In this document: piece after piece, positions 23,825 to 55,099 of the stretch | How the letters are laid out: each line of letters begins with the position of its first letter | Position numbering within the stretch: position 1 is the first letter of the stretch | Assembly (NCBI GenBank): GCA_036172245.1 | Contig: JAYWIR010000023.1 | Span: 1,116,001-1,180,000, forward strand | DNA length: 64,000 nucleotides | Direction of reading: 5' to 3' | DNA from: Raillietiella orientalis | Taxonomy: Eukaryota | The notes under the pieces: model-generated | Told to the model about the DNA's origin: nothing | The model's input: the letters and a program-made list of their open reading frames with translations, nothing else | Databases searched by the model: none | Translations under genes and position numbers: made by a program

Positions 23825-24450
23825 CAGAGATGGAAGCTCGGAGTGGGCAAACCCCTGGGAGGTAGCCGAACCTCGCTTCATAGAGCTGGGCACGCGCCAC
23901 TTGTGCTGGGGTAGGGATTGGAAGATTATCAGGTGAGGCAAGACTCCTTCTGCTCGGCAGGATCGCTTCTTCTGGGCAGGCTGATCATTTCCGTGGTCGA
24001 GACCCGTGTGACCTTTGATGAAGCAAAGAGCGGTGACCTCAACCTGAGCTACCTTCATCCTATCCGATGACCCAACTCGCATCCTTCATCCTACTCTTTG
24101 CCTTACCTGATTATCTTCCAATCCCTACCCCAGCACAAGTGGCGCGTGCCCAGCCCTATGAAGCGTCCAGAATTTAGGCGCTTCCAGCCCTGTAAAGCGC
24201 TCAGAGTTCGGGAGCTTCCCAGTCCTATACAGCAATACGGCCGACTGCCTCGAGCATTGAATTTCTTCGCATAAACTTCAACACCTCTCGAGAGACTCGC
24301 GTATACTACTGTTCTGACAGTACATGCAGATATGTACGGTAAAACTTCCCAGCAACCGAACCTCTCTAAACTGGGTCGGGACGAATCTCCATCCACGGCG
24401 GTATCCCGTAGGCTTCGCCTCTTCCATGACGAAGGAGGCGGTCCCACCCG
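23825..24450 (-). mobile_element. Decayed LINE RNase H domain (copy B)
   Basis: AVDGDSS, TVVYASL, LGSSRTLSALQ and LCFIKGHTGLDHGNDQ correspond to the RNase H blocks TDGS, AEL, SDS.SAL and WIPGH.GI.GNE. Confidence 0.5.
23874..24165. repeat. 68-bp inverted repeat (23874-23941 / 24098-24165), 3 mismatches, 156-bp spacer
   Basis: Left arm cgcttcatagagctgggcacgcgccacttgtgctggggtagggattggaagattatcaggtgaggcaa compared directly with the reverse complement of the right arm. Confidence 0.95.
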
Positions 24451-26419
24451 CAATGAGAGGGCGCGGTTCGCCCATATTTACTCGCCTTTGTTCATCTGCT
24501 TTGCTCCTTGAACCCCAAATGCATCCCCAACCACCCCTGTCGGCCTTCGCGGTCTCCTGCTCAGCTGGCCCGCGGGTCGCTGGTTCGCCGCCGCCTTTTT
24601 CCCCCTCTTGGACTCCCGGAGTCCCGAAGGAAGGTTTCCACCGCTTCGCGCGTTTGTTTGTTCATCTCCCTGACGCATGCCCGGCGTCCCGACCTCGACG
24701 CAGCTCTTCTCGGTTGAGAGGGAAGTCGCCCGGGCGGTCCCCAGAGTCTGAACTCGCGACCCGGTGGAATCCTGGAGTCCTGCTTCCCCTCCTCGATTGA
24801 GACCCCTCCTGCGGCCGTCTGTCTCCCGCGCGACGCGCGCGCGGACGCGGTTTTTCCGACGGAGGATGCGCGGCAGACTCTGCGCGCGCGCGCGACGGGG
24901 ATCGGCGGGGGAGGAAGTCGGGCGAAATGCCGGTTTCTTTCTTTCCCGCCCGCCCGCTTTCGGGCGATCACCATTTTGGCGGCGTTAAAAATAGATTCCG
25001 GATGACCGAGTGCCGGGAGGCGGGTGGCCGCGGAGGAAGCACACCTGTGAGCAGCGGAACACCTCTTTCTCGGAGCCTCCCTGCAGAGGCGCGCCGCCCC
25101 CCAGGCAGTTTGTTTGCGATGCGCGCCGCACGGAGCCGCCCCAAACAGGGAGGAGGTTGGACTCCGCACCGAGAGCAGAGGGATGCAGCTCGCGTAATCC
25201 GACAAAGGCATTCCGGTCACAGTATCTCCCCTCCCCTTTCCCCTCCCTTAAGGAAAGGAAGAAGGGAGGGAAGATGGGGATTTGAGGTTAAAAGGTCAGC
25301 CGGGGTGCAGCAGCACGTCTTCCGACTGTTCCTCACAGTGGGAAGATTTCACGAAGAGATCGATTGTTGGATGTTTTTTTTCCTACCGGCTGCGTGACGC
25401 GGCTTCGCTCGGGAAGTGCCGGGGGCGGGGAATTCTTTCCGAAGTGAGCCCTGTGTTGCAGCGCCGCCCCCCTCCCTCCCTCCATACTTAGCCCCCTTCT
25501 TGTCCCCTTTCGCGCTGCGCACTTCTACCGCTGAGCCGCCGCCGGCGCCCTCCGCCTGCGGGACCGACTGGCATCGACGAGGTTTTGGCGGCCGCCGCCC
25601 AAAGGCAGTGGGCAGCCCCGCTCTCTCGAAGGGCGACCTCTCCGCGCCGCAGGGACCTTCCCGTCCGTCCACCACGAAACCTGGCGCAGCACATCTGTTC
25701 CCGTGGGTCGGCCCCTCTGCACGCGCTTCAGGTGCCGAGGGCGCGCGTTATTGCCCCCCAGGGAACGGAGGGACTTCGAGCCCGGCTGGCCCAGAGATGG
25801 CTCCTAGGGTCCATGAGGTTTCGCCTCCAGGAACAAGTGACCGCGAGGACTTGGCTCAGGACCGCAGAAGAGCTCGTTGAACACTTCCGGGTTACCCGGG
25901 AGAGCTGCAGGAGAGTCACCGGCGAATCGGCTCGCTCGGAGCAAACAAACGGCTGCGCGCCTTCCCCCGGCTCCACTCCGCCCCCCGAGGGCGCTGCCTG
26001 TTCCCAAGAGAACACTCGTCCGTAATTTGGGGGGAGCATGCACGACTTTCTGGTGGTGGTCGCTGCTCTGATTCGCTCCAAAATACCGTCATCTGCGCGA
26101 GGCGGCTCCCGATTGTGCGCAAGCAGGGTCTCTTGTTGGTCCACGTTAATTGGCGGGTGATGCTGCGCCCCGCAGATATCATCTCTCTTGCTGCCGGTGC
26201 GATACACTTTTCCCGGATTCTTTCGTTACCCCCCTGGAGTGGCTACGGCTCCTGCTATTTTCAGAACATCGCAGCGGAACCGGAATGCTTTCCTTGCCCG
26301 CGGCGGCTTTTGACCTCCAAGATCCATGACTCCGCCGAGAGAGAACGAATCTGGAGACGCAGCGCCCTTCGGCCGCCACTCTCGGTAGCACGGCGAGTGC
26401 CTCTTTCCCTTGTAGAGGG

Positions 26420-27190
26420 ATAGCTGTGGCCGAGGCGTACAAGAACTGGTCGCTCAGGGAGCCCCTAGTAAGCAAGCAAATGCCTTCCGGGCTGCTGGAG
26501 AGGCTCGCCGAACTCGAGAGCTGCAAGCGAGCGCACCGCAAGCGCCTCAGCACGCAGAGCGAGCAACTCAAAAGAGAAGCGTCGGAGACGACTCCGAGCT
26601 CCCTACTTTCTATCGCAACTGCAGCGGGGTCATCTGCGTCAGATGGAGGCGGAGTTGTAGGGTCGCTGATGGCGACAAAACCCCGGTGGGGGTGACGCAA
26701 AGTTCCACTGAGGTGTCGGGAAGCGCCTGGGCGAAGACCGCCCGCAGTCGCAAGCGGCTCGGTATCTGTTCGAGGCATCCAGGGTCATCCTCAAGGGATG
26801 ATCGCCTCTTCCCAAGGCAGACGACCCGAAGCGCCACCGAGGGGCAAGGAGCTAAGGACGAAGAGTCAGTCTTAATGGATTCCTCACTGGCCCGCTCCGG
26901 GTGCGTCGGAGGCCCACAGGCGAAGATGCGCGAACGCCGGCCTAGCAAGAGGTTGGGGTGGCGGGGAAGACGCGCGCGGGGTCCGACCTCCAGGGCATCG
27001 TCCGCGATGCTCTCATAAAAGGAGGAAAATTGTCGGGGAGAGGTCAGCAACCGATGCTACAGCATTGCCGTCTGTTTATTGTTTCGGTCTCGAGCTCAGA
27101 GGAAGATGTCGGTCGTCAAGGAAGTAGACCCTGATGGTGGGCACCCCTGCCGTCCTGCTGCTGCAGAAGCTTCGCCACCGTCCTACAGTA
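26420..27190 (-). mobile_element. Possible decayed DIRS-type (tyrosine recombinase) retrotransposon remnant
   Basis: IRVYFLDD (RT YLDD-like), then SLAPCPSVALRV (LCPV.AL-like) and LALRAEALAVRSLAALEFGEPLQQ (HS.RA...G.PL..I-like), in RT-then-YR order. Confidence 0.3.
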
Positions 27191-28099
27191 CCTTCCACAG
27201 GTCGCCATCTTCAGCGGGAGCTGAAACCGGAAGCTGAGGGGGACAATTCCGGGGAATCCTTCGGAGAACGGCGGCCTTAAGAAGGATCTGAAAGGGGGAC
27301 CAAAGGGTCCCAGCGGGGGGGAAGGAACCGGGTCCCGGAAAGGACCCTGGAGGTCGAGGGACCCGCCTGAGGGTCTTAGCGGAAAGGTTCCGGGAAGATT
27401 CTGAGGGGTTTGAAACCCTCCGGGAAAGAGAAGATGGAAACGCGACAGGAGATTAAGGAACGCGAGTCTCCCAGAAACGGTTTAAGAGAGGAACCGCACA
27501 CTGCCGGGCACGGGGTCTCCCTGTCTAGCTTCTGCACGAAAGTCACTTGAGAAGAGGGTCACAGAGCCTCGCGGACATCCCTGCATCCTCGGAGACGAGG
27601 AGGTTCCCTTGGATTTCTCTTAGGGCTCTTCCCTCGATGCTTCCGTCTCCGACCCCGGACACCACCATGAACACCAGAGCTTAGGGCTTCCTGATGACGG
27701 GGAACACTTTGGCTCCTCGACGGGTGGGACTCCCTCAGGAATGGGAGAGTAGCGCCGCCCGCGGAGCGCGCCTTCCGCCTGCGGCGTTGACGGGAGGTCG
27801 TCGAGCGCACCTGGTGCTGGTGGTGGTGTTCCCGCGAGACCTCAAGCAGAGAAGGGCTGCTGATGGCTTCCTCTTCGTCCCTAACAGCCTCTTCCCCTCG
27901 CCAATCCATACAGCTTCTGGCTCCCATCCACGAAGAGCCGCGTCGAAGTGACTCTGGCGGGTGGGGGCTCGGAAAGACTCCTCAGGGCAGCAGTGTCAAG
28001 TTAAGGAGCCGTTCCCGGTGGGAGAACGTCAGCAGTAGGCGGCCGGTCGGTGTTCTATTTTTTGAGACCCGCTCAGTTACCCCCCTCCTACACACATGC

Positions 28100-28440
28100 A
28101 CACACCAGATTTCTCCTTACACACCGCGACCTTTGACCCCATGCATGAACGTAAGACTGAGGTCGAACTCTTGCACGCAATTTTTTCGAAAAAACTGTCT
28201 CGGGGCATCCAGAGCGAAGTGTTGCTGACCCCGACGGCTGACCTGCTCCAATGGCGCGAAAAGACTTGCTATCTTTCCGAGCCCTCGAGAAGGTTAGGAA
28301 AGCTGCATGGAAGGCTGCAGAAGTGTGGAGATGGCGAATCTTTTCGATGACCTGGGATAAACGGATATTCCACCGAGTGTACGCAAGGTGTCACGCTGGA
28401 ACAGGCCGCCAATTGCCGTCCCTGTCCGGAAAGCGGAGAC
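28100..28440 (+). mobile_element. Possible Ty3/gypsy gag remnant
   Basis: ELLHAIFSKKLSRGIQSEVLLTPTADLLQW and the later QAANCRPC resemble gypsy Gag LL..IFL..LP..IQ..L and the A..C..PC knuckle. Confidence 0.3.
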
Positions 28441-30165
28441 TGTGATTGAGGGTTGACCCGACCTGGCCGAAGAAGCAGTATCTTGTCGGCAGCCTGGGTC
28501 TACGAGTTGTCCCGAACAGCAGCGAAAATTCGGAGGAAGGAGCTGGCCGCGATGATGCTAATTTCTTAAGCGTCCCAGGTTCCACCCGAGCGACGACGAA
28601 GAAAGGAGGGAAAGGATGAAGAGAAGGAGGAAAGCGACCAGCAATATTAATTCCCGAATTTTCCCCAGTCTTCACCCAGTGCGTCAACTCTATACGAAAA
28701 CTGCTCTGAACTGTGGTGCGCTGGAACTCACATCAAAGGTGTTTTGATTGTTAAGTTGCTACGTCTTGAACTTTGACCTTATTTTGCGTTGTTAGATCAT
28801 CCTGGGTTATTCGGGAATAAAATTCCTCTTTCCCTTCTAGCTCTGCTCGGCTCGGAAAAAATCTCAAAACCAGGAATTTCATGCAGGCAGCATTGGGAGA
28901 CTTTTCTGGCTCGGCACGGGAGGGGAGTAGGGAGTTTCGGGTGAGGAGAGTGAGCAGCGCTGCGGGTACCTCCGAGGTGTGGGCACCCTCTTGGCAGCTT
29001 CTTCTTGCAGCGGAGAATGGCAGCGCCGCGCGGGAGAGGAGGGAGTACTGCAGGGTCAGGAGGGAGGGCACCGTCGACGTCGGGAAACCGGGAGGAAGGA
29101 GGGGATGTCCTCCGGAAGCTGCGATCCGCCGTCCCTGGACGGGCGCGGGGCGCGTTATGGGATTCACAGGCACGGGACGCTGAGCTGCGCCGCATGCTCA
29201 CGGGGGGCGCACAACGAGCGCCGGTTCGGGCGATTCGCAAAAGACCATGCGACCCGCGGGATGGCCTTTCTTCGAGACCAGAGATGGGCCTGAAGAGACG
29301 AGGAAGGGAGCAGTAAGCAGCGCCTTCCCTCGCTGCCTACTGCTCCCTTCCTCGCCGCTTCCGGTTCGGCGTTCCCCTGAGTGATGGCACAAGCACTCTT
29401 CTTGGCCACTAAGCGGCGGGAGAGCAGAAAGCGGAAACAACAATCCAGCCGTCTCCATGGCTCCCCCTCGAGAACGGAAAGAAAGAAATCCAGCGGAGAA
29501 CAAACTGCCTTCGGAGCCAAATCGACCAGAGTTGTTTGGCTGGCTCCCCTGGACGCCTGACTGAGGCCACCCGCCCCGTAAGTGGGAGCAATGCTCGCGC
29601 CCAGCGCCTTTCGGCAGTCCCGCGTACGGCGCGACGCGGAGCTCCGACCCTTGGAGGGATCGGCCGCCCCTGGGACTGCCTCTCCTCCAGGAAGGGCAGC
29701 TCCCGCCGTCTCCCTCTTCCCTCCCTCCGTCCCACCTTCGGACAGCGAAAGGGGGAGCGCGCCAGCGCGGCTCAGGACACCTCTGAAGGACAACGTATCC
29801 AATACTCCCGAGGACGCGAACCAGTCCTCTTACGAGGAAGCCGCTACACGGAGCTCAGCCGGGAGACGAACATCCCGGCAGACCTCCGAGTGTCCCGGGT
29901 ACGGTGCTCCAGGGAAGGGGAGGAGATCGGCTGCTCCCCTCGCCGGTCCTGCAGAGCCAGAAGCTAAAGGAGGGAAAGGACGGGTTCGATCTCTCACCAC
30001 CGAGGTCTGCCTGGATGTCTTCACGACGACGGGGACGGAAGGATGTGCGTTTCCCCTTCGCTCCTCCTCCTCCTTTTCCTCTCCGCTTTCCCGCAGGCTC
30101 CCGTCGCGGCCGCGGCGCGCAAAGTCGCTCACAGCATCCTCAGCCGCAGGCGTGTCAGTTTCCAG

Positions 30166-33100
30166 ATGAAGGCCTGCGCTCTGGCTGCCGTCGTCTCCCT
30201 CCTCCTCCTCCAGGAGAAAGCATCCTGCTTCCCGGCCGCGTTCCTGGTAGGACCCGAGGAGTACAAGGTGCTGACGAGGGAGCTGTGGGCGGAGGAGCTC
30301 AGGAAGAACTTCGGGGCGGAGCTCAGCACCAGCATCGGGAGCCAAACCTTCGACCAGTAAGCAGGGGACCTTGTGGGCACCTTAGCAGGGTCCGCGTGTG
30401 GGCCGCGAAGCTTCCAAGCCTCCCTCCCTGGGAGCCGGATCGTTCTCCTCCTGGCACCTCCTAGGCCGCGCTCGGGATCCCAGGCGAGGGCAGGCACCGC
30501 TCGGGAAGAGCAGGAGCTGACCTCAACCTCCCGCTAGAGACGATGCTCCTCCTCCCTTTTTCTTTCTTCCCCTTCCCTGAGGATGAGCCCAAGAGGGCAT
30601 CCGGGATGACCAGAGGGAGATGGGCCGCCCGACCCTTCTGCTCACCGCTGGTGTCCCTCTGCTCGAAGACCCTGTTCTCCTGGGAGCACTGGGAAGGCAC
30701 TATGAGAATACCGAACGAGGGAATGCACTGGCCTCGGCACCACCGCCTCAGGGAGTTTTGTGGAGATTCTCCCGGCATGCTCACCAGCGCCCGAGAGCTC
30801 TCTATAGGTACCGAATTCGAAAGGGGATAAAAAAACACGAAGTGGTGGAGACCTCTCTCCCCCCCCTCAGACTCCCCTCATCTGGGCAGAACTTCGACTA
30901 GTCCTCCCAAGCGCCGCTCCTCTCATGCCGGCACACCTCTCATGCTGACCACGCAGGGGATTCCTGGAGAATCGCACTCGGGCTCCACCACACTCCTTCT
31001 CCCCCTTTCCCCTTCATCTCCTTCTGCGAGGCCGCTGTGCCCCTGCCGAAGCCTCCGTGCCGGTGTTGAGTGAGATATGCCCGAAACAAGTCCAGCAGGA
31101 GAGCTGCAGACCTTGCCACGCGCGCTCCCGTTGCGGCGGGGAACAAGTGCCCGAGCACGCACCGGTACCGAGGTCCGCGGCGCGACGGTGGCGCGGTGGA
31201 CGGGAAGCGGCGAGGAACCCCCCTCTGTGGACCTATGAAGGGCGTTCCGTGGGCGCAGAGGTTTCAGTTCTCAGGACCCAGAGGCCACCTCCTCACCTGA
31301 GGGCGAGCTGGCAAGCGGGTCCTGCGCATAGGGCGCGAAAAATCGAAAACGAAAACAAAATGCCCTCTTAACCAGCGTTCTCGCGCTGCGGATTTCCCAC
31401 GGAAGCGGTCCCACGCCAGTATGGGAATCTGGACATGGTTCGCCCTTTCCGGGAACGACTCCCGAGCCGCCGCATCCCACCCTGTCTGAGAGCAGCGCTC
31501 TCTCGTCGGCATGCCTGGCAGCAGAGAGAATCTCGCGTTTCCCGGGGCGACGAAGCGCTCGGGGTAGGTCTTCCAAATTCCAGAAGGTCGCCCGAGAAAG
31601 GGACGGTTCCGGGAACCTCCGGGGCTTTTTAGGACCTGAGCAAAAAGTTTCCACTTCGGTTCGATCAAGCACCCAAAGGGGCTGCCCTTCCTCTTTTCTT
31701 CCTCCTCCCTTCCTCTTCCTCCTGTTCTCCCAGCTGTACCTTTGAAGACTCCTACGCTGCCACGAAACGAGCAGTTACGCGCTCGTTTGGAGCCGGTGTG
31801 TAGGCCCTTGTGTATACATGGACTCCCCACAGTTGTGCATGGATTCGACAAGAGTGAGGGGCTGCCCGACTAGCCCGACGCTTCCCAGCCCTCTTTCTTT
31901 CGCTTCCGAAACGCCGGTGACCCATCTGCGCACGCAGGTGAAGCGCGCGTGCAAGCACACATAACAAATGGGTCCGTTCGCAGTGTACGCTCACGTACTG
32001 CAAAAACAGGCTGATGAGAATGAGCTCCTGGCCAGGCCGATCCAAATGATGAAGTTCACTCTTCCATTAACCCAAATTCACGTGGATGCAGCACGGCAGC
32101 CATGGCGTGCCACAACATGAAGCCCTGCCGCTCGCCCGTCATGGCGGAGTTTCTTCTGCATGAGGAAATACGAAGCGCGAGCTCAGTTTCATTCATAAAA
32201 TGAATATCTGATTTTCATTCATGATGATACCGAGGAAGAAGTTTGATCCCTAAGGTTTCGAGAATCTAAGGGAAGAACCTTTCGAACACGTGCTATTAAT
32301 CCCTTATTCTCTCGGTGCCTTTCTGGTAGCAGAGGAGTCCGTCCATCGCTTGCCACAACAACTGCATCTGACATGACTGCTACACACTAAAGTTCTGCAA
32401 CCAATTGCTGCAATCCACAAGAAGCATCAGGGAGCTATGTGATCAAATGGCTAGTCCAAATGCTGGTGCGATGCAAAACATTTTTCCTTTTTCCCAGGGA
32501 ACGGAGCAAGTGCCTCCTGTGCTACTGCCTGTCTCAGTAGCAAGAACTGACGGTGTGTGTGCTAACCTGCACCATTCTTCTGCCTACTGACACGCACGTT
32601 GCTGCACATTTATAGGCTTCTAAGCTTCAACATTTTTGCGAAATTTCCCAAACGTGCTCACAGAGCAACTCTGGTCCACTGACTTGCTTTGCAGCACTCT
32701 CCCCTTCTCCTTCCGTCTCCCCTCTTCTACTTCCAGTTTGCATTCTTTAATCACCTTAGCCACAGAGAACGGGGTCTCTTCACCAGTGTAAGGGTAAGCT
32801 CTTCTCTTGCAAATCGCTGCTCGATCACGAGCAAAGTTGAAAGCAGTGTTTGCGGGTGGTGACAGTGGGTCTTTCTCGACTTGAATCAGATGTCAACAAC
32901 CAACCCGTGCGTGTTTCATCTTCGACACTTCGGAACGGTCTCGGTCGCATGTTCGGAAAAGACTCATTAGCAGCCTTCTTGAGCATTCTCAAACCATTCT
33001 GAACCACAAAGCGTAACAAACAAATTCTTGAGCATTTCCGGTATACCGAAATCTTTGGCAGCTTCTTTTGCGTGTCTTCGCTTCCTTTGTCCACTTTTTT

Positions 33101-36100
33101 TTTTGCCTGAACGAAACGAGAGCACCCCTAAGAGCTTCTCGAGACTTCCAGTTGTTCTACGTATCCAACACTTCACTCTGAAACCAACCTTCATTTCTAT
33201 TGTTCCATCGCTGAGTAAAAATGCTACTGCATTTAATACTGGATCTTTAATCACTTTCTTTTTCTTCTTTTAATGTTAATGTTATACAAAGTTCAGCGGT
33301 AAAGACTACTATAGTTTCTCCAGATGCAAAGAGTATATGAAAGGGAAGCTGAAGCAGTTGGCAGAGCACGAGTTTTTGCAAAGACTCTAGAGAAAAAGCA
33401 TGATAAGATTATTGTACTAAACAAATATAGAGAGTAAATAGAAGTGGCAAATAAAAATTGTATCATCGTCGATGATATAGTTGATTCTGGTGGAACATCA
33501 TGCAATGCAGCTCTTGCTTTCAAAAGTCACGTGGCAGAGTCTGTAATTTCATGCATTACACATGATGTGCTTTCAGGAAATGCAGTTGAAAAAATCTCTT
33601 TCTCTTCTTTAGATAAATTAGTGATATCTAACATAAGATTGGAGTAGCTTTAGCTTCTTTCCGCGCCTGCAGCGCAGCTTACAGCCTTTCGGCTTCAGCC
33701 GGTAGTGGAGTTGAGTCTTTGTAGCATATTGGCCAATTCAATAACTTTTGGCTCCTTTTAGAAGAATATCCATGTGATTTTGCTAACCTATTAGCTTTTC
33801 TCCCTATTGAACATGAGTAATGCTTACAGCAGCAGTAATACGAGTAAACTAGAAAAATTACTAACTTTTCTGAGGATCAGTTTAACGTAGATTCCGATGT
33901 GGACCAAGAAAGTGTTGATATTCAGGATGACGAGGTAGAAACCGAAATAGAGTCTCATCTCTAGAGAGGTGAATGGTAGAGGAACTCGTTCGCTCTTCGA
34001 CCAGTACCAAGCATCAGAACATCAGAACAGGGTCGAAAGCATCCCTCTGCTCCTGTTGGCCTCTGAAAACAAAACGGGAACGGAGACATCCGGCTTGCAA
34101 ATTCTGTCCAGAACACAAGAGACCCAACCAAAGTTTAGATCTCGAGAGATATCAGTGTTGCTAGGATTTCAGGAAAATCAAGAGAAGTAGGAGTGTGCAC
34201 GGCGACATCAGAGACGGCAGGAAAACGATCTCGGATGTGGTGACTGGAGAGCTAGCCAGATCCTCATCCCAGCTCCATCGCCCTGCCACATAGCCATGGG
34301 GCGTAAAACAATCTGCACGGATGCCGGACGCCATCTTTGACAATTAGCAAATCTCCACATGTTCTCGAATCTTGGAATTTTTTCAGGTTTTCGAAAAGGA
34401 TGCTCTCTATAGCAACATCCGGAAGACTGGTACACAAAACTCCCTGCAAGAGACGCACGGCTGCGTCCCATCACGCCGATTTCCGAGGAGTTTTCGGCTA
34501 AGAGAGAGAGAAGACATTTAATGGGAAGATCTGTGCTGAGCGTCGCGGAACGATCGATCTCTGTTTCCGTGGTGAAGTCGCGGCTGCTGAAAACTGCTCT
34601 CAATCGTGAGCACGGTAAAGAAAACTGAAGGAAGATGCACCCTCTCGCCCACGAGGTGGAAAAAACTCGTCCAGTAGCTCACTGAGATTTGTTGCTTGGG
34701 CAACCTGCAACTCAGAGTACTTTTTAACGTAACTGGCTTCAACGTAATCCTTACTGTGCGAACAAGTCCCAGAGGAGCATTCCAAAACGCAGCTAACAGC
34801 ACAGCTGCCGACTAGGCTGTTTCTATCACATTGATGGTCATGCTTGTAGACGCGGCATCTGACATAGCTGATTTTTTTTTAACCGTTCCGCATTCTCACA
34901 TCGATCTTTGTGAATTTCTCATTTGTATTTGCCGTGAGGTTCGAAAAAGCCACAGAGGAGTTCACCTAGGATTTCGAAATAAAAAAGAAGCTGGCAGTGG
35001 TATTTCCGCATCCAAACCTCAGCAATGCTCATATGTTTCTTTCGATCTTACCATTTCGAATGGACTCTTCAGCGGACACGGTTTTCCTCATCGTATTGGC
35101 TCTCCTTTTTCATGACCTTCAGTTACGAAATGGATGACCGGGGTCTGTTGACAGCCGGTGAGCAAGACGCTTTGTCAAGACTCTTTTGCAATAGGAAATT
35201 CCTTTCTAGACAGACATCGGGTGGGGGGAGGGACATTTGTTTTCCTCTCCTATTTTACCGCGCGTTCGCTACCGCATGGATGCTCCATGGACGACTTCCA
35301 GGAACACAAAGTTCAACCCAGTTCGCCTCACTCCAGTGGAACAGCGCGCTCCAAACTTCCGAACGATCGCACACGCTGGTGTAAGGAAAGCAGCTAGAAA
35401 CCGAACCAGCAGGGCAGAAACCTCCGGTTCGATCCCCAGCTGGCCCTATCTAGCATGTAACCGTGGAGATCCGACACTGAACGCACCGATGTCCGGAAAG
35501 AGCAGTTCAGCACACACACGAGGCCGCGGGAATGGATCCGATGCGAGCAGCGCCCTATTCCCTCTTCGTTTGGTTTATCGGCCTCCATCCGGAGATGAAG
35601 AAGGCGCTCGTCCTCAGAGGCCTCTTCATTCACCCGCCGACGGATGGTCAAGCTAACAGAAGCAATCCGGGGACCGCGAAACGTCAACCGCCATCGGGGG
35701 ATTTGGCGCGTGCAGCTTCATGCCGTGAGCTCAATTGAGGACGCGCGGATGCAAAATGGATGAGTCACTTTCACGATTCATGCGAACCTGCCTGCTTGGC
35801 TATCTTCCCGTGGAGTTCGGCTGGAAGAGTCCCCACCGACCTTTCTCTGCGCGACTCCGAGGCGGGCGGATGCCAACATGAAGATTTGCTCGAGGAGTTC
35901 CGCGTCATGAGCTTTTGTCTCTCTCATAGGTTCGTCTCCAGGAAGCCGACGTCGGAATACATAAATTCCACCTGGGTGAAGACCTTCATCAGGCTGCTAG
36001 AAGAGCAAAGGCCTGAATTGGAAGAGGAATGCCTGAACCATTTCAGTAATACGGAAATTTTCGAGATAATGAAACGCTTCCTGGTTCGAAAAGGTGAGTT

Positions 36101-39100
36101 CGCATCTGTCGTTCAGGTGAGCCCTGTCGGTCTATCGGTTCCTACGGGAATGCATACCCTCGCCGGCAGGCGCGGCCGTCAGCCCACTGGTAGCCACTTT
36201 CAACTGGCTGTGAGACTCCTCTAGATTTTCGATGAGGACCGGCTCTGATCGAGCTTTCGTCCGCTTCCATCCCTTCACCGTTCGTCGACCGTTCTCCTGG
36301 AATGCCGGGACTCCTTATTTCAAAACTCTTCATCCAGTCTCTGGAACGGCTTTTTACCAACCGGGGGAGCATCTGAGAGATGGGATCTTGTTTGCCCTTG
36401 TACCGTACCGTCCGACTGTCTCCAGAGGGGACGATTCCGGCTCTGCCTGCTTGCACCTGAGGTCGTGCTCGAAGCTGCGGGCGGAGCCCTCTGTACCTCT
36501 CTGATTGCTGTCCGGGCACTCCATTGCTGCTTCCTTCCTTTGCTTCCTGACCGACGCTGCTGAAGTTTGCCTTCCTCTGCAAGCAGTGATTGCATCCTCT
36601 TCCTATCTGAACACTCTAGCATCCTCTTGCTCTTTGCGGATGTTCTCGTATAGGATGGAGAGAGAAAATGTATTTTTTTTTTTTTGCAGTGAAACAAAAA
36701 CAGACACGCAGCTCAGCTGGGGGGAGTCTGGAAACGTGAGCGGAACACACGCGTACTTAGAGCACATCAGGGTCAGAGCCCATTTTGTCTGTTGTCCAGG
36801 GAATAACTGTTCATCTCATCATCTTTCACCTTACCGGACTAACGAGAAATTTTTTTTTATTATTATCCAACTCCTCATCCACACGCTCTGACAAAAAGGA
36901 TAAATGAGTTTCCCTTGCCTTTGGAGAGCTGAGAAGTGATCATGAGATCGATCAATCGGAACGCTCCCCCGTACGATGTTTGGAGATGGAGGCTTAACAG
37001 GCCTCCCGCACTGCATCCCCAACAAGGAGACCGATGCTCGGATACGGCCTCCGAAATTCCTAAGATGGCACTCAAAAAGGCTCGACAACCTCCTTGTTTC
37101 CAACTCGTAAGGGAATCAGGACTCTTCAGAATTGGTTCGCTCCCGGTGGAGCAGCACGGGGCGGCTGCCGCTCGCCGAGTTCGTCGGAAACCGGGAACCA
37201 AAGTAAAGAGGATCTCGAAGATGAAAGATGATCGAATCGAAGATTTTTTTCTTGAAGGACTGAACACCCAGAATCTCGTAGAATCCGAGGGATGAAAGGA
37301 AATGCTGGCTTGGTGCACTGTCGAGATTCCCGAAGAGGAATCAGGGGGCGTCTACTGTCTTCCCGTGGAGCTCGGAGCTCAGAAAACTCTCCTGAACTCG
37401 GTTACCTCTGCTTTCCATGTTACTCACTTCGGTAAGCGTCGGGGAATCTATAGATTCCTCGTCTGCATCGTGCTGCTTGGACCTCCAAAGAAAAGCCATC
37501 GACAAGGTTCTGTTCCTTCACTCTCACAAGGCTACGGCTACGTGCTAGTCTCCCCAACTTCCTCTAAGTGAGAAGAAATCTGCAAAACGGACGGCTTCTC
37601 TCCTCCTCCCCTCCTCCTTCCGAAAGAAAAAAAAGAAGTTCGCTTTATGGATGGGGCACTTCGTGACTTGAACCATCCAATCAGCTCATGCCTTAGTAGC
37701 ACAATCATTGGTGCTACGGACTAACGGCAGCGACAAGCAGAGAAGGAAGCAGCAGATCCCTCCATGAGCTAGCCCTCACGTGAAACGTCCGACATACGAA
37801 GTGCAGGTGCTGCAGAACAGAAACGAATGCGTTTCAAAGCTACGCTGGTCATCAGCAGGAAGTGCAGATGATTCACAAACCGACAGCAAAAGACCCCTAG
37901 GTAATCTACTTCAAATGGGAAGAGCTCCGCTGACCGATTGCTACTCATGAAACCAGAGGCACCGGTCACGCGGGAAACTCCTCCGGAGAAAAGAGAAAGG
38001 CTTTACTGGGAACCGCGCGAAAAGATAAACAAGGAATCTCTCCGTAGGCAAACGTGTGGGTCGCGACCTCCTGAGGAGTCGTGGGTGAAATTCCGGAAGA
38101 TCGCAAAACTTCAGTCCTCTTTTCTTTGTCAAGTCATTCGAATCAAGCGAGTAATTTGTTCTTTCATTTAACTGCAGCTGCTCTCAACGTGATTGTCCTG
38201 TACACATGAGAAGGTGTGTGAAAAGCCATTCCGAGCAGCAAAAACAACGGGATTCTCATTGTGTTAGCATGGTACGAAAATGCGTTGGAAAAAGATGAAG
38301 AGTTCGTGTATAATGCGCTTTCGAAAAAGAGACCGTGGTTGGATAACTTTCATTCACACTGTAGTTTCCGGTTTTAACGATCGAGTGCATCAAAGGGCTC
38401 ATCACTTAGTCAGATGCGCTTAGTTGCCACGTCACCCCCCTCTCCCCCAAGCACACACACCAAGCACACACTTCAAACTTGAGATAAAAGTCAAATATTT
38501 CCTAATGCCATTGACATCGGGATTGTTACAAGGAGCTGCAGATCCAGGCTTACCTAACCTGATGCGTCTCGCAAATCTGGTGCAATGAAGGAAACCCTAG
38601 GAATCGGTGATGGCCTCCATAAAGCAGCCTCCTTCGTTGCATAAAATAAAGTAGCTGTTACAACCAAGTAATAGGGTCTGCTGATCCTTCGCTCTCTTGT
38701 CTTCGCACGCCTGAAACGAGCAAGCAGATGGCTTTGGGTAAATCCTCCTGCTCCCTGTATCTGTCACCCCGATTCGTTTGCCCGCTGCCTCAATCCCAAT
38801 TCTTCAGTGTTCAGGAGACCAACCTCTTTAACGGATAGAGCGAAACCCGTGCCTGGCAAGCCAGCAGAGAGAGGCAGCATCGTCTGAATCGACGAGCGCC
38901 CCGCCTTCCAAGTGCTCCTGGGACGGATCCGTCTTTCTTCCATCTTCCTTCCATGCGTGTTTGTGCGTGTTTGGAACTACACGTTGAGTCGTTGCAGTCT
39001 CGAAGGGGGAGCACAGAAAAATCGCTTCAAAGATCTGCTAGGAGAGGAGATACCAAGGAAGATAGCTGCGTGCATTCAAGAAAAGTAGGAGGATGGATAA

Positions 39101-42100
39101 GCTCAGAGACAGAAGATGCTGGAGACAGAAGATCCTGTCTCCATACGCATGCCTTTGGAAACAACAGTACTAACGTCGAATGCATTTGCGAGACTTTAAC
39201 GACTGGATGAAGATGGATGTTGGATGCATCATTCCTCCGACTATGGAGAATTCCATTCCATTCTATCTCAATTTAGCTGTAGGCCCCTTTGATCTTCTGT
39301 CCTTTCATCCTTCTAAAGAAACCTGTGTCAGGCTAATTTCTTGAAGATGGAAATCAGAGACCTCAGTTACCTATTTTATCCCTTTAGCTGGATCCCCAAG
39401 GCTGGTTCATTCACCTCTTAAATACAAAAATTTCAAAGTGTGTGGTTTTCGATCTTCCAAGGAAGTGATATTTGAATCACAACACCAACTTCCATACCAG
39501 TATCCGGTGAGTTCTGGGGTATGGAATTTAATATCGAGATTCCATACCAAAGATTCGGGATTGCATAAAGATGGAAGGAATTTTCCACTAAATGAGCATC
39601 GCTGGCCTACTGAGTAAGGTTCTTCTCTACTCTTTTTCTGTTTCAAGGTGAACTTGTTTCCATGCTCCAACGGCTCTTACGCGGAGCTTTCAGTCTCCAC
39701 CTTGTCAAGGTATCGTAAAGCATTGCCACAGCTCGTGGCACCGATTTTACGACATCTGCCTTGCATGTGCATTATGGAGACCTTGCGATCCGAGTGCTTT
39801 CAGTTTCAGCATTCCTATTCACTCATTTACAGATTTATGGTGTTTGGTTTTCCCTCTAAAGGTAAAAAAAGGGAAAATTTCCTAACCCACTTGGAAACGC
39901 TGTTTCAAATTGTCCTTCCAGTGTGAAAACTTACATTAACGCACACAGTTAAGCGTGAGGGGAGTGAAAGACTTTGCCTAAATTTTTCGTCTGCTATTTT
40001 CTTCTTCTCCAGCTTTAGCGCACCTATTTTGGGAGGAAAGGAAGGAGGAGTTCTCTTGCTTTTTAATGAGTTTAGCACCTCTCGAGGATGGTTTTCTTTC
40101 TATAAGCTACTCCTCAGAGAGATCTGTTAATCTTTTGGTGCCAGTGGTCTTACAAACGCGAAGAGTATGAAGGAAGATACTCCTATTTGATGCTTAATAC
40201 GCACGCACACGTGCGTGTTTATTAAGTGTGTGTGTGTTACGTGACGTGTGCGTGAAGATCAGCTGAGTTCACCACAGACGGCCCTAAATTCATTTCTTGA
40301 GCACTTACTTCCTCACGATTCCATCAAATCATGGTTTGCAACTGAAATAGTGTATACTTATTGTATACGAATCAACTAGTCATTCATGATTTTTTCCTTC
40401 CAGGGATGACAATCGAAGAGATTCGGAAAGTCTTTAGGACCCTCTGGTTTACTTCTACTTACAAGGGTGAGGAGAGACCAAAAAGTACCGGCTTCAAGCA
40501 CGTTTTCCAAGGAGAAAACCAAGCAAGGAGCGTGCAAGGGTTTCACAATTGGATAAGATTCTATTTAGAGGCAACTCTTGGAAACATCCAACACATCCAA
40601 GTATTACACATTGATACGCTTTCAACGGTAACAATCTCAAGCATTTTCTTCATCTATCTGTGCTTCTGGACCTCGAATTCATGAATATTGAGAAAGATGG
40701 GAGCTCGTTCAAATTGAATTCCTAACAGATTCATAATTAACCCTAAAACTCAGTTCGCCTCTTTTTAACATTCGTATTTAGAAATAAAACTTTTGATTCA
40801 GAATTTTATCGCGACTCATGAGGGCAAATGCAATAACGGGTTCAAAATGTTTCCAGTGTTTCTTGTAAGAATGGAAAGAATAGCTCTCAGATTGCAAGTA
40901 AAGCTTAAAATGACTATTGTGTCGCAGATTGGAATCGATTAGATTCTAATAAAGGAACTGGAAGCATCACTCACTTTATTCGAGCTTTCATAGAAGCCTT
41001 CATTAAAAGAAGGTTGTGTACGCGACTCGTTCGTTCGTTCTTGAATCTTTCGAAGTTTTGAAAAAAAAAATAGCGTTTATCAATGTCAAAAAATAATCTG
41101 TCCATTATACCTGTCCAATAATAAATTACAAAAAAATTACCAGTTATCAAAAAGCAATGTCAAGTGTATCGAAGCAAGTTTGTTTTGCTGCTTTTCTTTC
41201 TGAGAAGGCAATGAAAAAGCCCTTTAACTTAGTCAAAGACCTCAGTTTTCAGGCATTTCGATACATTCTTTGCCATTAGAAACGATTCTATAAATATCCA
41301 ACAGATTGTGGCTTTGAGCAATTCACTTTACCGTTGAGCTTTTTCGCAGGACCAATTTCTCTGGCAAACGCGTTTTCCACACACGGAAACCCTTATTCCT
41401 CCTCCAAACCGAAGCTCTTCGAGCTTCCACTGCTTCGACGGTCGCTCCCCTTTGGCTAGCTCGGGTCTGCGCGGATGCTGCGGAAACCCTAAAAATTCAA
41501 GCTTGTTATTCTACTCGCTCTTTTTTTTTTCTTTTTTTCTATAACCTTCCCCACGTTTGCTCCTGAGACACTTCCCCGATATAAGTAAAATATGTAGTTT
41601 TTCCTTGTAGTTATAATAAAAAATAATCAAGGATTCTCTCGTGAATGGCATATCTTTTATACATTCAACGTGATGTGTTGATGTCCATGAAAACGGTACA
41701 CGTCACATGTCCGTCTCACACACATCCATTCGTACTACCCTGTGATATTTGCTTCGTGTTCTGCCATGCCGGTACGGAATGAAGATGAGATGTTTTCCGG
41801 TAAAAGTATCATGGCATTCCAAAAACGAAAACAGTGTCATTATTCATTCACCGAAATCACCGAAGAAATATAATAGGATATGTAAATGAGGGAATTACTT
41901 ATGCATGCTGTTACTTCTTGACCGTATACTTCTTAATTGTATAATTGCCAGATTTTCCTTTCCTCCCAAGATGACTTTTCCTCAAGAGTATCTGTATTTC
42001 GCTTTTAATATAAAAGGGATTGGGCAATTGAGGGATCATAAGATGAAAGCAACTATCTAGGTGGGGGGGGGGGGAAATACATTCCCACCTTCTAACTAAT

Positions 42101-44122
42101 TCTGTAATGGAATTTCAAAAGAAAAGATATGAACCAGCGAATAAACAACTCTTAAAGCAGTAATTTAAACAAAACAGGAATAGGTTTATAGGTTTTTTTT
42201 TTATTGTTTTTCCGTTAAAAGAATACTTGATACTCAAATACAGAAACCTTTGTGATTACCAAATTAGTTGTCAGATGAGTTTCAATTTATGAAATGCATT
42301 CAGTGCGGTTCCATCGTAATTTTTCTCCAGCAGTTAATTATCTCGAAGCGCTAATAAGGAAGGTATTTTAGCGAAAGTGATAGTTGGGTATTGCTACTGA
42401 GATTTTCTTCATATCAATAAACAACAATTACATTTAGACCCGATACAGTCTTAGATGATGAGATAATTAGATATGATTTGTTAGAACGTGTCAGATACAG
42501 TGTCATTTCATCAGCAACATCGCATCGGTAACCTTCTCGTTGTTTCTTGGCAAACTTTGTGCCTATGTTTTCCTTTAATTGCCACCGATATTTTTTTTTT
42601 CCAAAGGAAAAAGATCAACATGAACCAAAGAAACCCAGATTACAAAAAGCACACTCTTCTAAGGCCAAGAAAAGCATTGGGAAGTCCCGAAACGTAACAA
42701 ATGCAAACGTTGTATGGTAACCGGCATAAAAATTTACTTGGAATCAGACCCTATATTTTGAACGGCTCTACAGTCTATGGAAGACTTTTAAAAACAATGT
42801 CAGCACTATTTAAGCAAGGAGAAAATCTCTCTTCAGGGTTGTGCAGAAATCCCGTAGCATTCCGTCCCACAGAAGTAACGCACATGCCTTTGTCCTAGCA
42901 GCTCCGTGAACTCTCGAGATCACCGTAGAATTAGTGTTATGTACTACTTTTATCCTTTTTTGCACGCACTTGGTAGAACATTACGAAATCGACTTGGTCG
43001 GACGATTTATTGATGAATCGAAAATTGCCGACGTTGTAGCCACGGAAAACACGAACGGGTGTCTGGCAACCCCCTTTCTCTGAACGAACATACTGGGATG
43101 TAGCAGGCGAACCATGACGATTCGCGTTAAGAGTGAAAATGTAGTCAATGTCCGACCTTAAATTGTAAGAAATGAAAACAATTTTTGAAATTTGATTGAT
43201 TCTCGTGTGTTTGGGGCAAGCATTTCTTTGTTTCGAAAAGATCGATTCAAATATCTGCACTAATGAAATCAAAGTGAATAATGAATTGAAAAGGGGTGCC
43301 AACTTTCTAGTCACGTACATCGGCTCGAAACTGGTATGGGTGTTTGCCTAAAATGAAATGAGCTCTAGCCACAGAAAAACCGGTGTAATATTCTAAAAAT
43401 TAATAGGTAGCTAATCCTGAGGCACCACAGTTATTATCGCATGGGGGAATCCAACACGATCATTGCACCGAATGTGAAGTCACTCATCTACAGTATTGCT
43501 CACTGATTCAAATTCCATTCGTTTCGTTGCATGTGCCACTCTAATAAAACACTCTTGAGAGTGCAATCAGTATTTTAAAGAACCATTGATGAAAAGTTGT
43601 ATTGCCAGCAAATTTAAATTCAGCAAATTAGCAGAGTCAACTACCAAACATTTTATTCACAATCATGTTCACTAATTGATACGTAAAGTTGGGAATCCAC
43701 TTTGGAATTCCACATCGGACTCAATCGTTTCAAAATATTCAGCTGCTTGCTGGCAATTTCTACACATTCTTATTTCTAAAATCACGATGAGCTCTTGCAA
43801 CTCCATTCTCCAAAATGAGTAGTTTGGTTTTCATACTGTGGTAACAGAATTCATTGCTTTGCAGACAACGAACAAATACTTCGTTAAGATGAAGTTCCTA
43901 TGGAAATCAATGGAAAAAACGATGTCGAGCATGTTCTTTGGAACCACTCCTGAATATGAGCTGGCCATATACACTCTTTGTGCTTATATTTATCCTGGAC
44001 CAACTTGCAAAGTATCGTGCGGACCTTACGACGTTACCATAAATTCAATAACTGCAATACGCGATGGTTTTGATTTGCTGACCACCTCATATCCTACAGA
44101 AGCCAGGTTAACACGCTCGTAA
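30166..44122 (+). CDS. EndoU: Secreted EndoU/XendoU-family poly(U)-specific endoribonuclease, 4 exons: 30166-30356, 35930-36093, 40404-40627, 43865-44122 (278 aa)
   Basis: All three introns are GT-AG with matching phases (2, 1, 0); spliced length is 837 nt. Motifs: signal peptide MKACALAAVVSLLLLQEKASC, TWVKTFIRLL, IMKRFLVRKG, TLWF, GFKHVFQGE, GFHNWIRFYLE, KTMSSMFFGTTPEYELAIYTLC. Confidence 0.88.
33305..33647 (+). pseudogene. prs: Disabled C-terminal fragment of a bacterial-type ribose-phosphate pyrophosphokinase (Wolbachia/Rickettsiales-like), inside EndoU intron 1
   Basis: Translation: TTIVSPD / frameshift / AVGRARVFAKTLEKKHDKIIVLNKYRE*IEVANKNCIIVDDIVDSGGTSCNAALAFKSHVAESVISCITHDVLSGNAVEKISFSSLDKLVISNI. 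It includes the PRPP-binding motif IIVDDIVDSGGT and an in-frame TAA at 33435-33437. The segment is intronless and AT-rich. Confidence 0.85.
35270..35750 (+). mobile_element. Ty3/gypsy integrase core remnant in EndoU intron 1
   Basis: IHPPTDGQANRSN (His codon at 35631) matches the integrase YHPQTDGQ.ER.N motif; a degenerate SD motif lies upstream. Confidence 0.45.
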
Positions 44123-44542
44123 TAACCAACTACGGAATCATTGAGCAGACTACAAGGTCTTAATCCCTTTAAGAGGAAAATGAAGATTTTGTGCAACTTG
44201 GTTATTTTGGTCATCCATGATTTCAGAAAGATCATGAACTCTTTGATAATTATTTTGCACTATTTTGGATATCTATTTGGGTACGCATCAAAGCTGCTTT
44301 GAAGTAATGAGCCTCAAATGTACAGAAAAATTCCTTATCAACAATCCTACATGAAAGTTCAGAAAATGTACATAGACCCTGCTTTAGTTCTGAATGTTCT
44401 AATTGAGGAAAACATGGGAATAAAAACAATAAAAAAATGCAATATCCATCATGAGGAGGAGGATGTTTATTTCTTTTGAAACTCCACCATGGAATTCAAA
44501 GTACATTTATTTCATGAACATTCTGATTTGTATGTTTAAACT

Positions 44543-45133
44543 TCAGTTTTCTTTTTTGAAAACTTCACGCACTCTGCAATTCAGACCTCTTTTGCATCGA
44601 GCTAATTCAATTGCATAAAACTGGATTCTAGGCACCACAATGGAATTATCTGGTGTATAAGGGAGGTGGCTATCTAATCTTAACAGAGTTCCCATGTTGA
44701 AATCAGGCACAAGCGTACTATAATTCTCACAAAAACTTCTCCATTCCTAATAAACAGAAGCTGTCATATAAGACAAATCAATAATAGTACCTTTTTGGCT
44801 TCCTCATTTTTCAGATCATCTTCATTAAGCACATCCACTTCAAGATTAGGAAAATGTTCGCAAAACTGCTTATAGATCTGACTATCATAAGGGGTCAATT
44901 TGAGAGTAGTGGAATCCACTGAACTTATAATCTGAAAGCAAATAGTCATCATAACTGACTATTTGGCATAAACTAACATCAAAATATGTGTCAGCGTGGT
45001 CACCTGCAGATCTGGCCCATAATTCCTCCACTTGAGACTACAAATGATTGTTTCTCTGGATTAAACATGAATCACAACTTACATCATTAATAAATTCTTC
45101 TGCTGGTCTGGAGAGAAGTGTATTAATATCCAT
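44543..45133 (-). CDS. PBDC1: PBDC1 (polysaccharide biosynthesis domain-containing protein 1), 4 exons: 45133-45083, 45037-44978, 44931-44791, 44746-44543
   Basis: Spliced protein MDINTLLSRPAEEFIND-SQVEELWARSAGDHADTYFD-IISSVDSTTLKLTPYDSQIYKQFCEHFPNL...DDLKNEEAKK-EWRSFCENY...DFNMGTLLRLD...NSIVVPRIQFYAIELARCKRGLN. GT-AG introns of 45, 46 and 44 nt. Confidence 0.9.
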
Positions 45134-45229
45134 GCCTGTACCCTGCTTACAAATAATTTGAGTGAAATTTTGCATAGATGGAGTTGTGGTCATTTATGAA
45201 TGTCAGATTGACTCCCACAGTCAGCATGA

Positions 45230-47605
45230 TTATTTATTACCATATTTGAAAGCACTGTGTGGTCTGAATACCAACTTCCCCGGAAATCTCAAACCTCTTT
45301 GCCTCACTGAGAAGGGCAATAAAGATGGAATGCGCACATTGATGCCTCGAGACTTTGGTGTGTGAACTCTGAAGATGCATGTCAGATCAGGTGCACCAGT
45401 AACTGATATCCATCCTGTCAAATAAATCAATTGACCTAAAGTTAGATATCCTTTCAGACTTTTACCAGCTGAACTGAGCTGTATGTCTGCACAGCTTTGG
45501 AACCAAGAGCTGCATGTTATTTTCACTTCTTTGGGCATTAATCCTGGCCAATCATGTAGGCGTTTGCCAGCCACTGGCACCCTCAGCAAAGATTTTCCAA
45601 GAAAATCTTTATAAAAATCATCAGCAAATTCAGTGTCCAAGATGCTTACTGGAAGTTTACTGGAGCTGAAAATTGTGACACTGACAGAAATAATTTAATG
45701 GAAGAGACAGTAGTGCTCACATAAGGTAGGAAGGTGCCACTGGTCCTTCCAGAACATCGACTCGAGCTAATCCAGCTAAGAAAAGTGACCAACCTTTTCT
45801 TATAATGAAAGAGCGTGGCTGGATGACTTCTTTGGGAATAACTAGCATTAGTTCTTGCACAGTCAACAAATCTAATATTTGCTCCTGATGCAAGGTACCA
45901 GGAGTGTCATAACACCAATGACTTCGTAGAAAAGCTGGATGACTGAGGTCAACAGTTAGCTGTTTGCTTTGAATTTGAGGCAAATGATTCAAATTAATCA
46001 GTGGCAGTTCATCTCTTTGTTCTTGTTTAAATTTGAATGTCTGCCCAACATAACCTGGATTTCACTTAGAAAGTCACTCAACTGAAATGATCCTTTACCA
46101 ATTAATTGCTTGTAACGATTCTCTCTTATGCTTTGCTGCTCATTCAATTCCTTTTCTTTCAAATATTGTTCATAAGATTTTCTTAATCGCATCTTGCGTT
46201 CAACATAACGAATACTGTTCATTCTCAAAATAGGAAACTGGTACAAGTCTCATTAAAAAAATATACAATGCATCTCTTACTTTGAGCAAATTAAGTGTGG
46301 TACCAGGCCATGGGGAAACTGTAGCCCTTTGAAGAATATCTGCTGCCTGACTTTTACACAAATCTGATTGTAGAAACACATTAAACAAGGAAGATTTTCC
46401 AACATTTGTGCAACCCATCAGATATATGTCTCCTGCATTTATATTGGTCAAGTGGTTTTAGTTCTCTAATTTACCTTTGGTTCCCCAATATTTATGAACA
46501 GCACCAATGAGTTCTTCCACACCAAAACCTGTCTTTGCACTCACTAAACATACATGAATAATATTTGCATGCTGGAGATAAGAATTCTTAGCATACTGTA
46601 ACAGATTGGACCGAATGCGTTCAAGCCAACCTTCTGAATCTTGTGGAAGCAAATCTACCTTGTTGCCAACAAGCAAAATAGGTATATCAGTACCTGGAGA
46701 CAAAATTGCTATAACTGTACCCTGACCTTACATTTCTTACCAATAACTTCTGTGAGCTTTGGCCATATACTACAGGGTGTATCTAGGATGTCCACCATTA
46801 ACATGATCAGGGCTTGTTTATCTCGGATACGCGATATCATTTTAGAATAATCATCAGGAGACACTTGCACCGATAAAGTCACATTGTATTCACGAAGAAC
46901 GAAACACCGCTGGCAAATTGTTTGTTTTAACTGAGTCTCATTCAAACGTTGAAATTTTTCATGGGGGATAAACCCTGGTAATCCAGAATCACGGCAGTGT
47001 AGTAAAGCACCGCATCCTCCACAAGGTACTGAGCTCTCAGGAACTGACGGATCAGCTGTGCCATAAGAAATCTCACATAAGTCCCTCTCATAGTCCGTCA
47101 TCATTTCAAGCTTATCAGGAATTTCTACTTCCAACGGAACATCTAGTGGGCTGAAGGAAGAAACTGACACTTTTTTCTTAAGTGACTCAAGAATGTTCAT
47201 CTTGAGGTTTTCTTCATCTGAAGCTACCATTTTCACATCCTGAACAGTTTGAAACGGATATTTCACGGGGACAGAATCGGGGTTTAACTTCGCAAGATTC
47301 TCCTCCTTGCTTTGCTTTATTTGCACGGCCAACATGGACAATGGTGCAGTTGCACTATCACGTATGTGCTGTTTTAAAATCCTCTGTTTCACTTTTTGGG
47401 GGATGCAGTATTTCATTAGATGCTGTTCAAAAACCTTTGAATTGAAACGCAAACGGTAGCATTCTTCAAGATGTTCACGATCCCAGTCACATTCGGCCTC
47501 ATTATTTATTCCATGCGAGTTCCTAAGAGGTAGTGCTAACGTCCTCACCAAAATATTCGGATTAAATATGCGATAAAAAGATTTTGAACGAAGCAAGCAA
47601 GGCAT
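45230..47605 (-). CDS. NOA1: Nitric oxide-associated protein 1 (mitochondrial circularly permuted YqeH-like GTPase), 7 exons: 47605-46741, 46693-46475, 46432-46281, 46237-46099, 46054-45721, 45680-45466, 45414-45230
   Basis: Zn-finger CGGCGA...CQRC; G4 GNKVDLLP and G5 VSAKTG precede G1 GCTNVGKSS, then G2 PGTT and G3 YDTPG; C-terminal [10 protein letters not shown] and SSAGWISVT. Six GT-AG introns of 47, 42, 43, 44, 40 and 51 nt. Confidence 0.93.
45233..45238 (-). promoter_or_regulatory. Candidate AATAAA polyadenylation signal formed by the last two NOA1 codons
   Basis: Minus strand reads GGT AAT AAA TAA (G-N-K-stop). Confidence 0.4.
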
Positions 47606-54966: not shown

Positions 54967-55016
54967 AATCCAAACTACTATCCCTTTCCCATCCAAACTA
55001 CTATCCCTTTCCCATC
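54967..55016. repeat. Two-copy ~23-bp tandem repeat (atccaaactactatccctt(t)tccc)
   Basis: Directly visible duplicated unit differing by one T. Confidence 0.85.
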
Positions 55017-55099
55017 CATCAGATTAATCACAACCCTAAAATTGGGAATGATCCCATGCCATTAAAACGATAAATCATTATGAATAACATATCGAGCAC

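Follow-up and report, generated by a model that had tools for sequence, protein, structure and literature searches.

Mosaic nuclear insertions of mitochondrial or plastid DNA (NUMTs and NUPTs) consist of non-adjacent organelle pieces that are concatenated by end joining, scrambled in arrangement, joined across short overlaps or filler bases and left to neutral decay. We describe here a locus that shares their scrambled order and orientation, their short-overlap or filler joints and their decay, and that differs from them in having an endosymbiotic bacterium as donor: a mosaic of Wolbachia-derived DNA at positions 33216-33951 of a 64-kb stretch of Raillietiella orientalis DNA (contig JAYWIR010000023.1, positions 1,116,001 to 1,180,000; this whole stretch of 64,000 nucleotides is termed the window). 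Nuclear Wolbachia transfers (NUWTs) are well described and, in the account given in PMC12693587, range in size from some hundreds of base pairs up to nearly whole genomes and are mostly pseudogenised, with those of filarial nematodes treated as a record of past infection. In Brugia malayi, adjacent NUWTs can derive from different parts of the Wolbachia genome, according to the relevant sections of PMC3849323, and in Dictyocaulus viviparus decayed “fossil” fragments with frameshifts and stops led to the inference of a past infection, as the corresponding part of PMC4046930 reports.

Set beside the Brugia malayi insertions as those sections portray them (PMC3849323), the present locus is alike in being made of short Wolbachia-derived pieces in host DNA with junctions mostly outside coding sequence, and unlike in its arthropod host, in the packing of six tiles into 736 bp and in an rpoZ gene split by three other tiles; it is also known from the assembly alone. 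Its insertions, deletions, frameshifts and nonsense codons recall the Dictyocaulus and filarial fossils, which the portions of PMC4046930 and PMC12693587 devoted to them judge non-functional and take as a record of infection; those studies are, however, described there as whole-genome surveys of hundreds of fragments with donors assigned by phylogeny, whereas a single locus is considered here. We regard the locus as an ordinary case of a well-described phenomenon, made mildly unusual by its compact six-tile structure and possibly by a donor outside the Wolbachia strains labelled group B.

Our analysis indicates that 33216-33951 is very probably a decayed NUWT, that is, bacterial DNA joined into an arthropod chromosome and now without function. 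Tiling was based on Wolbachia DNA searches (against 2 genomes, 60 genomes of the genus and 5 close genomes) coupled to local blastn, and the Wolbachia genes at the tiles were named from their open reading frames (ORFs) and Pfam. Six Wolbachia pieces of 27-284 bp each were recovered, drawn from at least four source loci (the mnh-rpoZ neighbourhood, prs, the end of an IS200-type insertion sequence (IS) element and an IS4-family transposase gene), partly inverted and out of order (Table 1). Matches to Wolbachia DNA lie beyond chance (E-values to 1.4e-76 per genome), 59 of the 60 Wolbachia-genus genomes match window positions 33100-34100, and all six tiles are 84-96% identical at best to genomes of this genus. 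Wolbachia ancestry is found in the DNA of every tile and, for prs, also in the protein and its tree; all tiles are partial and every one is disabled. A first-pass annotation, made from the letters of the window, had described the largest tile as an endosymbiont-like prs pseudogene; that piece is real, and the five other tiles had been missed.

Table 1. Coordinates of the Wolbachia-derived tiles and of host exons and genes in the window
Feature	Position	Strand	Best DNA identity to Wolbachia	Description
Tile A	33216..33326	-	94%	Mrp/Mnh cation-proton antiporter junction: MbhD/MbhE-type 3' end and MnhB 5' end
rpoZ 5' piece (RNA polymerase omega)	33321..33347	+	96% (L105 1519-1545)	27 nt, encodes RCKEYMKG
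prs fragment (ribose-phosphate diphosphokinase)	33350..33633	+		Residues ~169-276/279 of 306-308; tblastn, blastn, Pfam, NCBIfam
In-frame TAA in prs	33435-33437	+		tblastn alignments and sequence
Tile D	33624..33716	+	84%	Non-coding in Wolbachia, ~55 nt beyond the 3' end of an IS200-like (Y1_Tnp) transposase gene
Tile E	33726..33801	-	90%	Inside a multi-copy IS4-family (DDE_Tnp_1) transposase gene (RKANRLAKSHGYSSKRSQKLLNW)
rpoZ 3' piece	33809..33951	+	91%	NMSNAYSSSNTSKLEKLL..., then frame shift
XendoU exon ORF	40346..40681	+		Pfam E 2.9e-15, profile 115-174; likely acceptor near 40403 and donor near 40600
Last XendoU exon ORF	43823..44119	+		Pfam E 7e-19, profile 183-262; likely acceptor near 43865
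DUF243 (Tweedle-type cuticular protein)	8755-10563	+		Complete domain, E 1.2e-12, ending a 603-aa ORF
PBDC1	44546-44958	-		Two exons
GTPase	46203-47605	-		MMR_HSR1 / GTP_EFTU matches
Alpha-catenin	57187-60369	-		Six Vinculin-family exons

The order and orientation of the tiles are not those of a bacterial chromosome. In Wolbachia, rpoZ is contiguous, the two window pieces corresponding to positions 1519-1545 and 1543-1683 of one locus (L105; the latter interval matches window 33809-33951), and the same contiguity is seen in two further Wolbachia genomes and by tblastn; in the window, 461 bp of prs, tile D and tile E lie between the two pieces. Similarly, mnh and rpoZ share a strand in Wolbachia, ~1.1 kb apart, and in the window mnh is inverted and on the other side, while prs lies 118-276 kb from the rpoZ neighbourhood in complete Wolbachia genomes. 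The joints A/rpoZ, rpoZ/prs and prs/D share 0-6 bases, and the joints D/E and E/rpoZ hold 7-9 bases of filler.

At the level of single tiles, tile A matched four Wolbachia loci by blastn (L083, L103, L104 and L105; 89-94% identity), with GETIVVFTAELCITLTLKEEKESD and VIKDPVLNAVAFLL matched by tblastn, and the rpoZ 3' piece was 81-91% identical to L103, L104 and L105 and fell into two frames by tblastn. Tile D, 82-84% identical to two Wolbachia loci, probably corresponds to the right end of an IS200-type element, given the transposase gene beside it in Wolbachia (Pfam Y1_Tnp, E 9.6e-36); a search of this tile, which is GC-richer, for structural RNA gave no Rfam match at E<=1 and no tRNA. Tile E was 90% identical to at least six copies in one Wolbachia genome (G026) and 77-89% identical to copies in others. 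The near-identical copies of this tile's IS4-family donor in G026 (at least six, at locus L102 [G026:C1:1150100-1153200] and in other places), together with diverged copies in other genomes, illustrate the heavy IS load of some Wolbachia strains. A tblastn match to rpoZ at 33786 (“TY*LFSLL”) was rejected, the DNA there being IS4-derived.

For the prs tile, five Wolbachia Prs queries aligned by tblastn to 33354-33632 or 33354-33641 (E 1e-35 to 5e-38; 65-68% identity with gaps counted), so that the entire N-terminal half of the protein and ~30 C-terminal residues are missing; at the DNA level, blastn gave 77-78% identity to Wolbachia over 321 aligned columns and 90% over an ungapped 186 nt. Most lesions listed by the first-pass annotation hold up. 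The fragment is AT-rich (GC content 0.34-0.36 across 33200-33599, against 0.43-0.53 in the flanks), the stop codon is aligned in frame, and both the change of GGTL to GGTS (codon 33498-33500) and that of THGV to THDV (codon 33564-33566) are visible in the tblastn alignments. The gap proposed between KYRE and EVANKN is a 30-nt deletion at 33439/33440, directly after the TAA, by which the loop KAGTSQVMNIIG is lost, and it is accompanied by a previously unreported deletion of 15 nt between 33400 and 33401. The claimed frameshift, on the other hand, has to be given up. The upstream peptide TIVSPDAKSI (33311-33337) matched Prs (“IVSPDAKSI”) only at E=10, and the DNA of this supposed 5' piece of prs is 91-94% identical to the Wolbachia mnh/mrp junction, read from the opposite strand, after which come 27 nt of rpoZ; because the upstream DNA is mnh and rpoZ, the apparent frameshift is a joint between different fragments. 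At the opposite end, the tail “ISNIRLE*” (from ~33624) belongs to tile D and not to prs.

No complete ORF with Pribosyltran_N plus the C-terminal domain was found at this locus. The stop-to-stop ORF 33438-33644 (69 aa) matches the C-terminal domains alone in Pfam (Pribosyltran, E 1.5e-10, and Pribosyl_synth) and covers profile positions ~201-292 only of the NCBIfam ribose-phosphate diphosphokinase models, and neither GGTL, nor THG, nor the inter-domain loop (KAGTSQVMNIIG in Wolbachia, which we take to be the catalytic flexible loop of Prs) is present. In comparison with Wolbachia class I Prs, the window copy has kept the phosphoribosyl-diphosphate-binding loop DDIVDSGGT and the surrounding C-terminal-domain sequence (~80% identity), but it lacks the N-terminal domain, KAGTSQVMNIIG and the C-terminus and carries the in-frame stop. 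Furthermore, all three codon positions contribute evenly to its differences from the closest sequences (3-4, 3-5 and 6-7), as expected once constraint is lost, compared with 23:15:62% in pairs of Wolbachia sequences. Judged by its sequence, the prs fragment is a dead gene, unable to encode the enzyme.

That the fragment is of Wolbachia type rather than an animal PRPS, as the first-pass annotation had supposed, is borne out by protein searches, bit scores and a protein tree. A protein search with the 69-aa ORF yielded 229 of 253 candidates at E<=0.001; among the best 120, the first 109 were 72-83% identical and every row with a named source was a Wolbachia Prs, while the last 11 (58-68% identical) bore no source name. 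In a scan of one genome per species (573 of 600 candidate stretches confirmed), the best 80 loci were led by two at 81% and 77% identity, one titled Wolbachia and the other a metagenome-assembled genome in the same genus set, and the remaining 78 (Bartonella, Rhizobiales, Anaplasma, Rickettsia and others) reached 52-63%. Bit scores separate the sources in the same way: 98-102 for Wolbachia Prs, 45-61 for bacterial Prs structure chains and 31-35 for human PRPS1/2 chains, values on which an origin from the host PRPS gene was rejected. In a maximum-likelihood protein tree of 47 rows, the fragment fell within the Wolbachia clade (support 89/89).

Within Wolbachia, the donor lineage can be placed loosely. 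The tree groups the fragment in an 11-row clade (97/95) in which its nearest neighbours are Candidatus W. massiliensis, a strain from the pseudoscorpion Atemnus and filarial strains, with wCfeJ also a member; its end branch is long (0.25, against a median of 0.053). This topology suggests a non-group-B clade as the source. Forcing the fragment into a cluster of 14 rows, mostly labelled “group B”, was not rejected by the approximately unbiased test (p-AU 0.165), and we therefore claim no donor supergroup. DNA distances argue for nesting of prs within Wolbachia, and it is on them that nesting rests: when the ungapped 186 nt are compared, 13 distinct Wolbachia sequences stand 14-29 differences away from the fragment, and pairs of Wolbachia sequences are separated by 1-33 (median 21). 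A speculative and rather doubtful extension would make the mosaic the fossil of an infection by Wolbachia from outside the group-B-type cluster common in arthropods, preserved in an arthropod lineage poorly represented in databases; if true, the locus would add to what is known of the hosts of these rarer Wolbachia lineages.

The case for chromosomal integration was made by the first-pass annotation from a position between exons 1 and 2 of an EndoU gene with matching splice phases, and this argument does not survive. Both detectable XendoU exons (~40.4 and ~43.9 kb), each with plausible splice sites, lie downstream of the insert, the first of them ~6.45 kb away, and none was found upstream by four approaches: Pfam on 120 plus-strand ORFs of 28.8-37.9 kb; tblastn with 73 homologues, which a full-library search had supplied when queried with the last exon; tblastn with only the N-terminal portions of 60 of these, where the best match (E 0.011) was off-target; and a hidden Markov model of 29 single-domain homologues, applied first to 1242 ORFs and then to 2609 across the whole window. 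At the level of the assembly, the window contains no N, and the mosaic lies in this gap-free stretch between GC-richer flanks without Wolbachia match, with arthropod genes on both sides. All matches to the five close Wolbachia genomes in 26001-46000 are confined to 33216-33951, and no Wolbachia DNA was found elsewhere in 1-8100, 8001-28000, 26001-46000 or 44001-64000, save a 35-bp poly-T run at 49759-49793. Compared with the EndoU context, the scrambled structure of the mosaic, its disabling lesions and its host flanks make a better, if indirect, argument for integration. No transposon protein was recognised near the insert by Pfam in the 111 ORFs of 30.5-41 kb.

We propose that fragments of a Wolbachia chromosome, released from lysed bacteria, would have reached the germline nucleus of the arthropod host and been ligated into a chromosome break by end joining, a step to which the joints point, and that the insert would then have decayed neutrally into DNA now without function. 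A block of three tiles divides rpoZ cleanly, and this can be read in two ways: as stitching of shattered DNA in one step, or as the result of a further capture or a rearrangement that happened there afterwards. We lean towards stitching at or near the time of insertion, by a modest preference. The competing account, in which the mosaic is what remains of a larger contiguous Wolbachia insert scrambled afterwards in the host by deletions, inversion and secondary insertion, is possible but distinctly less likely. It draws on the origin of tile A and both rpoZ pieces in one ~1.3-kb Wolbachia neighbourhood, on the clean rpoZ break around prs, D and E, which fits a second event at the site, and on the near-whole-genome sizes that some NUWTs attain in the account of PMC12693587; yet prs and the two IS pieces lie far from rpoZ in complete Wolbachia genomes, such that several captures or long-range joins would be needed anyway, no other Wolbachia DNA is left within 26001-46000, and joints with short overlaps or short filler are what end joining of loose fragments is expected to produce. 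Host co-option of the insert, perhaps as an exon, an untranslated region or a regulatory piece of the downstream EndoU gene, seems highly improbable. The insert does lie upstream of that gene on the same strand side, the N-terminal half of EndoU was not found in the window, and some NUWTs are transcribed, as noted in the pertinent passages of PMC3849323 and PMC4046930; however, the same passages judge the transcribed fragments non-functional, the longest open frame across the mosaic does not exceed 77 aa, its tiles are in mixed orientation, Pfam recognises nothing beyond the prs remnant, and no RNA family matches.

The ancestry of the DNA and its place in the chromosome were weighed in the same manner. 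Derivation of prs from a host PRPS gene or from Rickettsiales other than Wolbachia has practically negligible probability: the prs protein taken by itself does not reject a basal placement, but the bit scores favour Wolbachia over human and other bacterial proteins, the loci of Anaplasma, Rickettsia and other alphaproteobacteria reach at most 63% identity among the best 80, five further tiles match Wolbachia DNA at 84-96%, and the DNA distances fall inside the range of the genus. Misjoining of reads from a resident Wolbachia into a host contig deserves a hearing, since Wolbachia contamination is common in arthropod sequencing and the junctions are known from the assembly only. A living Wolbachia would, however, supply intact prs, rpoZ and mnh, where here all are partial and prs is interrupted by a stop and has lost bases in two deletions; divergence of the tiles from the best match among 60 genomes of the genus is 4-16%; and the assembly would have to contain seven false joints within 736 bp, amid 64 kb of gap-free sequence. 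Because the tiles are partial and diverged, prs is disabled and the host flanks are gap-free, we consider a chimeric assembly very unlikely.

Several observations nevertheless count against a decayed NUWT as we describe it. No target-site duplication or convincing flanking repeat marks the insertion, and a 30-nt word spanning the rpoZ/prs junction gave 0 matches in metagenome contigs, so that the junctions lack an independent copy; support for the junctions is at the assembly level only, and the argument for integration is indirect. The time and manner of stitching are read from the joints alone. Moreover, a protein tree in which prs branches basally to all 31 Wolbachia rows was not rejected (p-AU 0.438), and the prs protein alone would be no proof of a donor nested inside the sampled Wolbachia.

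As a decayed NUWT, the locus documents an arthropod lineage that once carried, or still carries, Wolbachia, and bacterial DNA that reached its germline. Being compact and having joints that can still be read, the mosaic offers a modest example from nature of how loose bacterial fragments come to be stitched together in an animal chromosome. Annotators should mask 33216-33951 as pseudogene DNA of bacterial origin and call it neither a host prs gene nor contamination.

The surroundings of the insert were also described. The EndoU-like gene on the plus strand (40346-44119) shows only its C-terminal half, the N-terminal XendoU half not being found in the 64-kb window; its 5' part may be very distant or very divergent, or the gene may be truncated, and the insert could lie either in a long 5' intron or in intergenic DNA. 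A word search with the 40.4-kb exon returned 185 candidates, none significant, and a weak EndoU candidate at 35739-36221 was rejected (E about 1-2). Other genes recognised in the window encode a Tweedle-type cuticular protein, PBDC1, a GTPase and alpha-catenin (Table 1). No listed sequence is more than 85-86% identical to the alpha-catenin exon, with at most 85% for named proteins of hexapods, crustaceans and myriapods; in a quick tree the exon lies outside the cluster of sampled hexapods, which points to a host that would be an arthropod without a close named relative among the alpha-catenin sequences compared. GC skew is strongly negative at 52000-57000 (-0.20 to -0.45 per kb), where no large tandem array was found and the only repeat is one of 23 bp in 2.5 copies (54962-55018). 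The gap-free window also undergoes a marked shift in GC content, from 0.51-0.67 in 1-32000 to 0.27-0.42 in 39000-64000, with intermediate values at 32-39 kb, where the mosaic lies; with arthropod genes in both halves, this looks like strong host compositional domains rather than a chimera.

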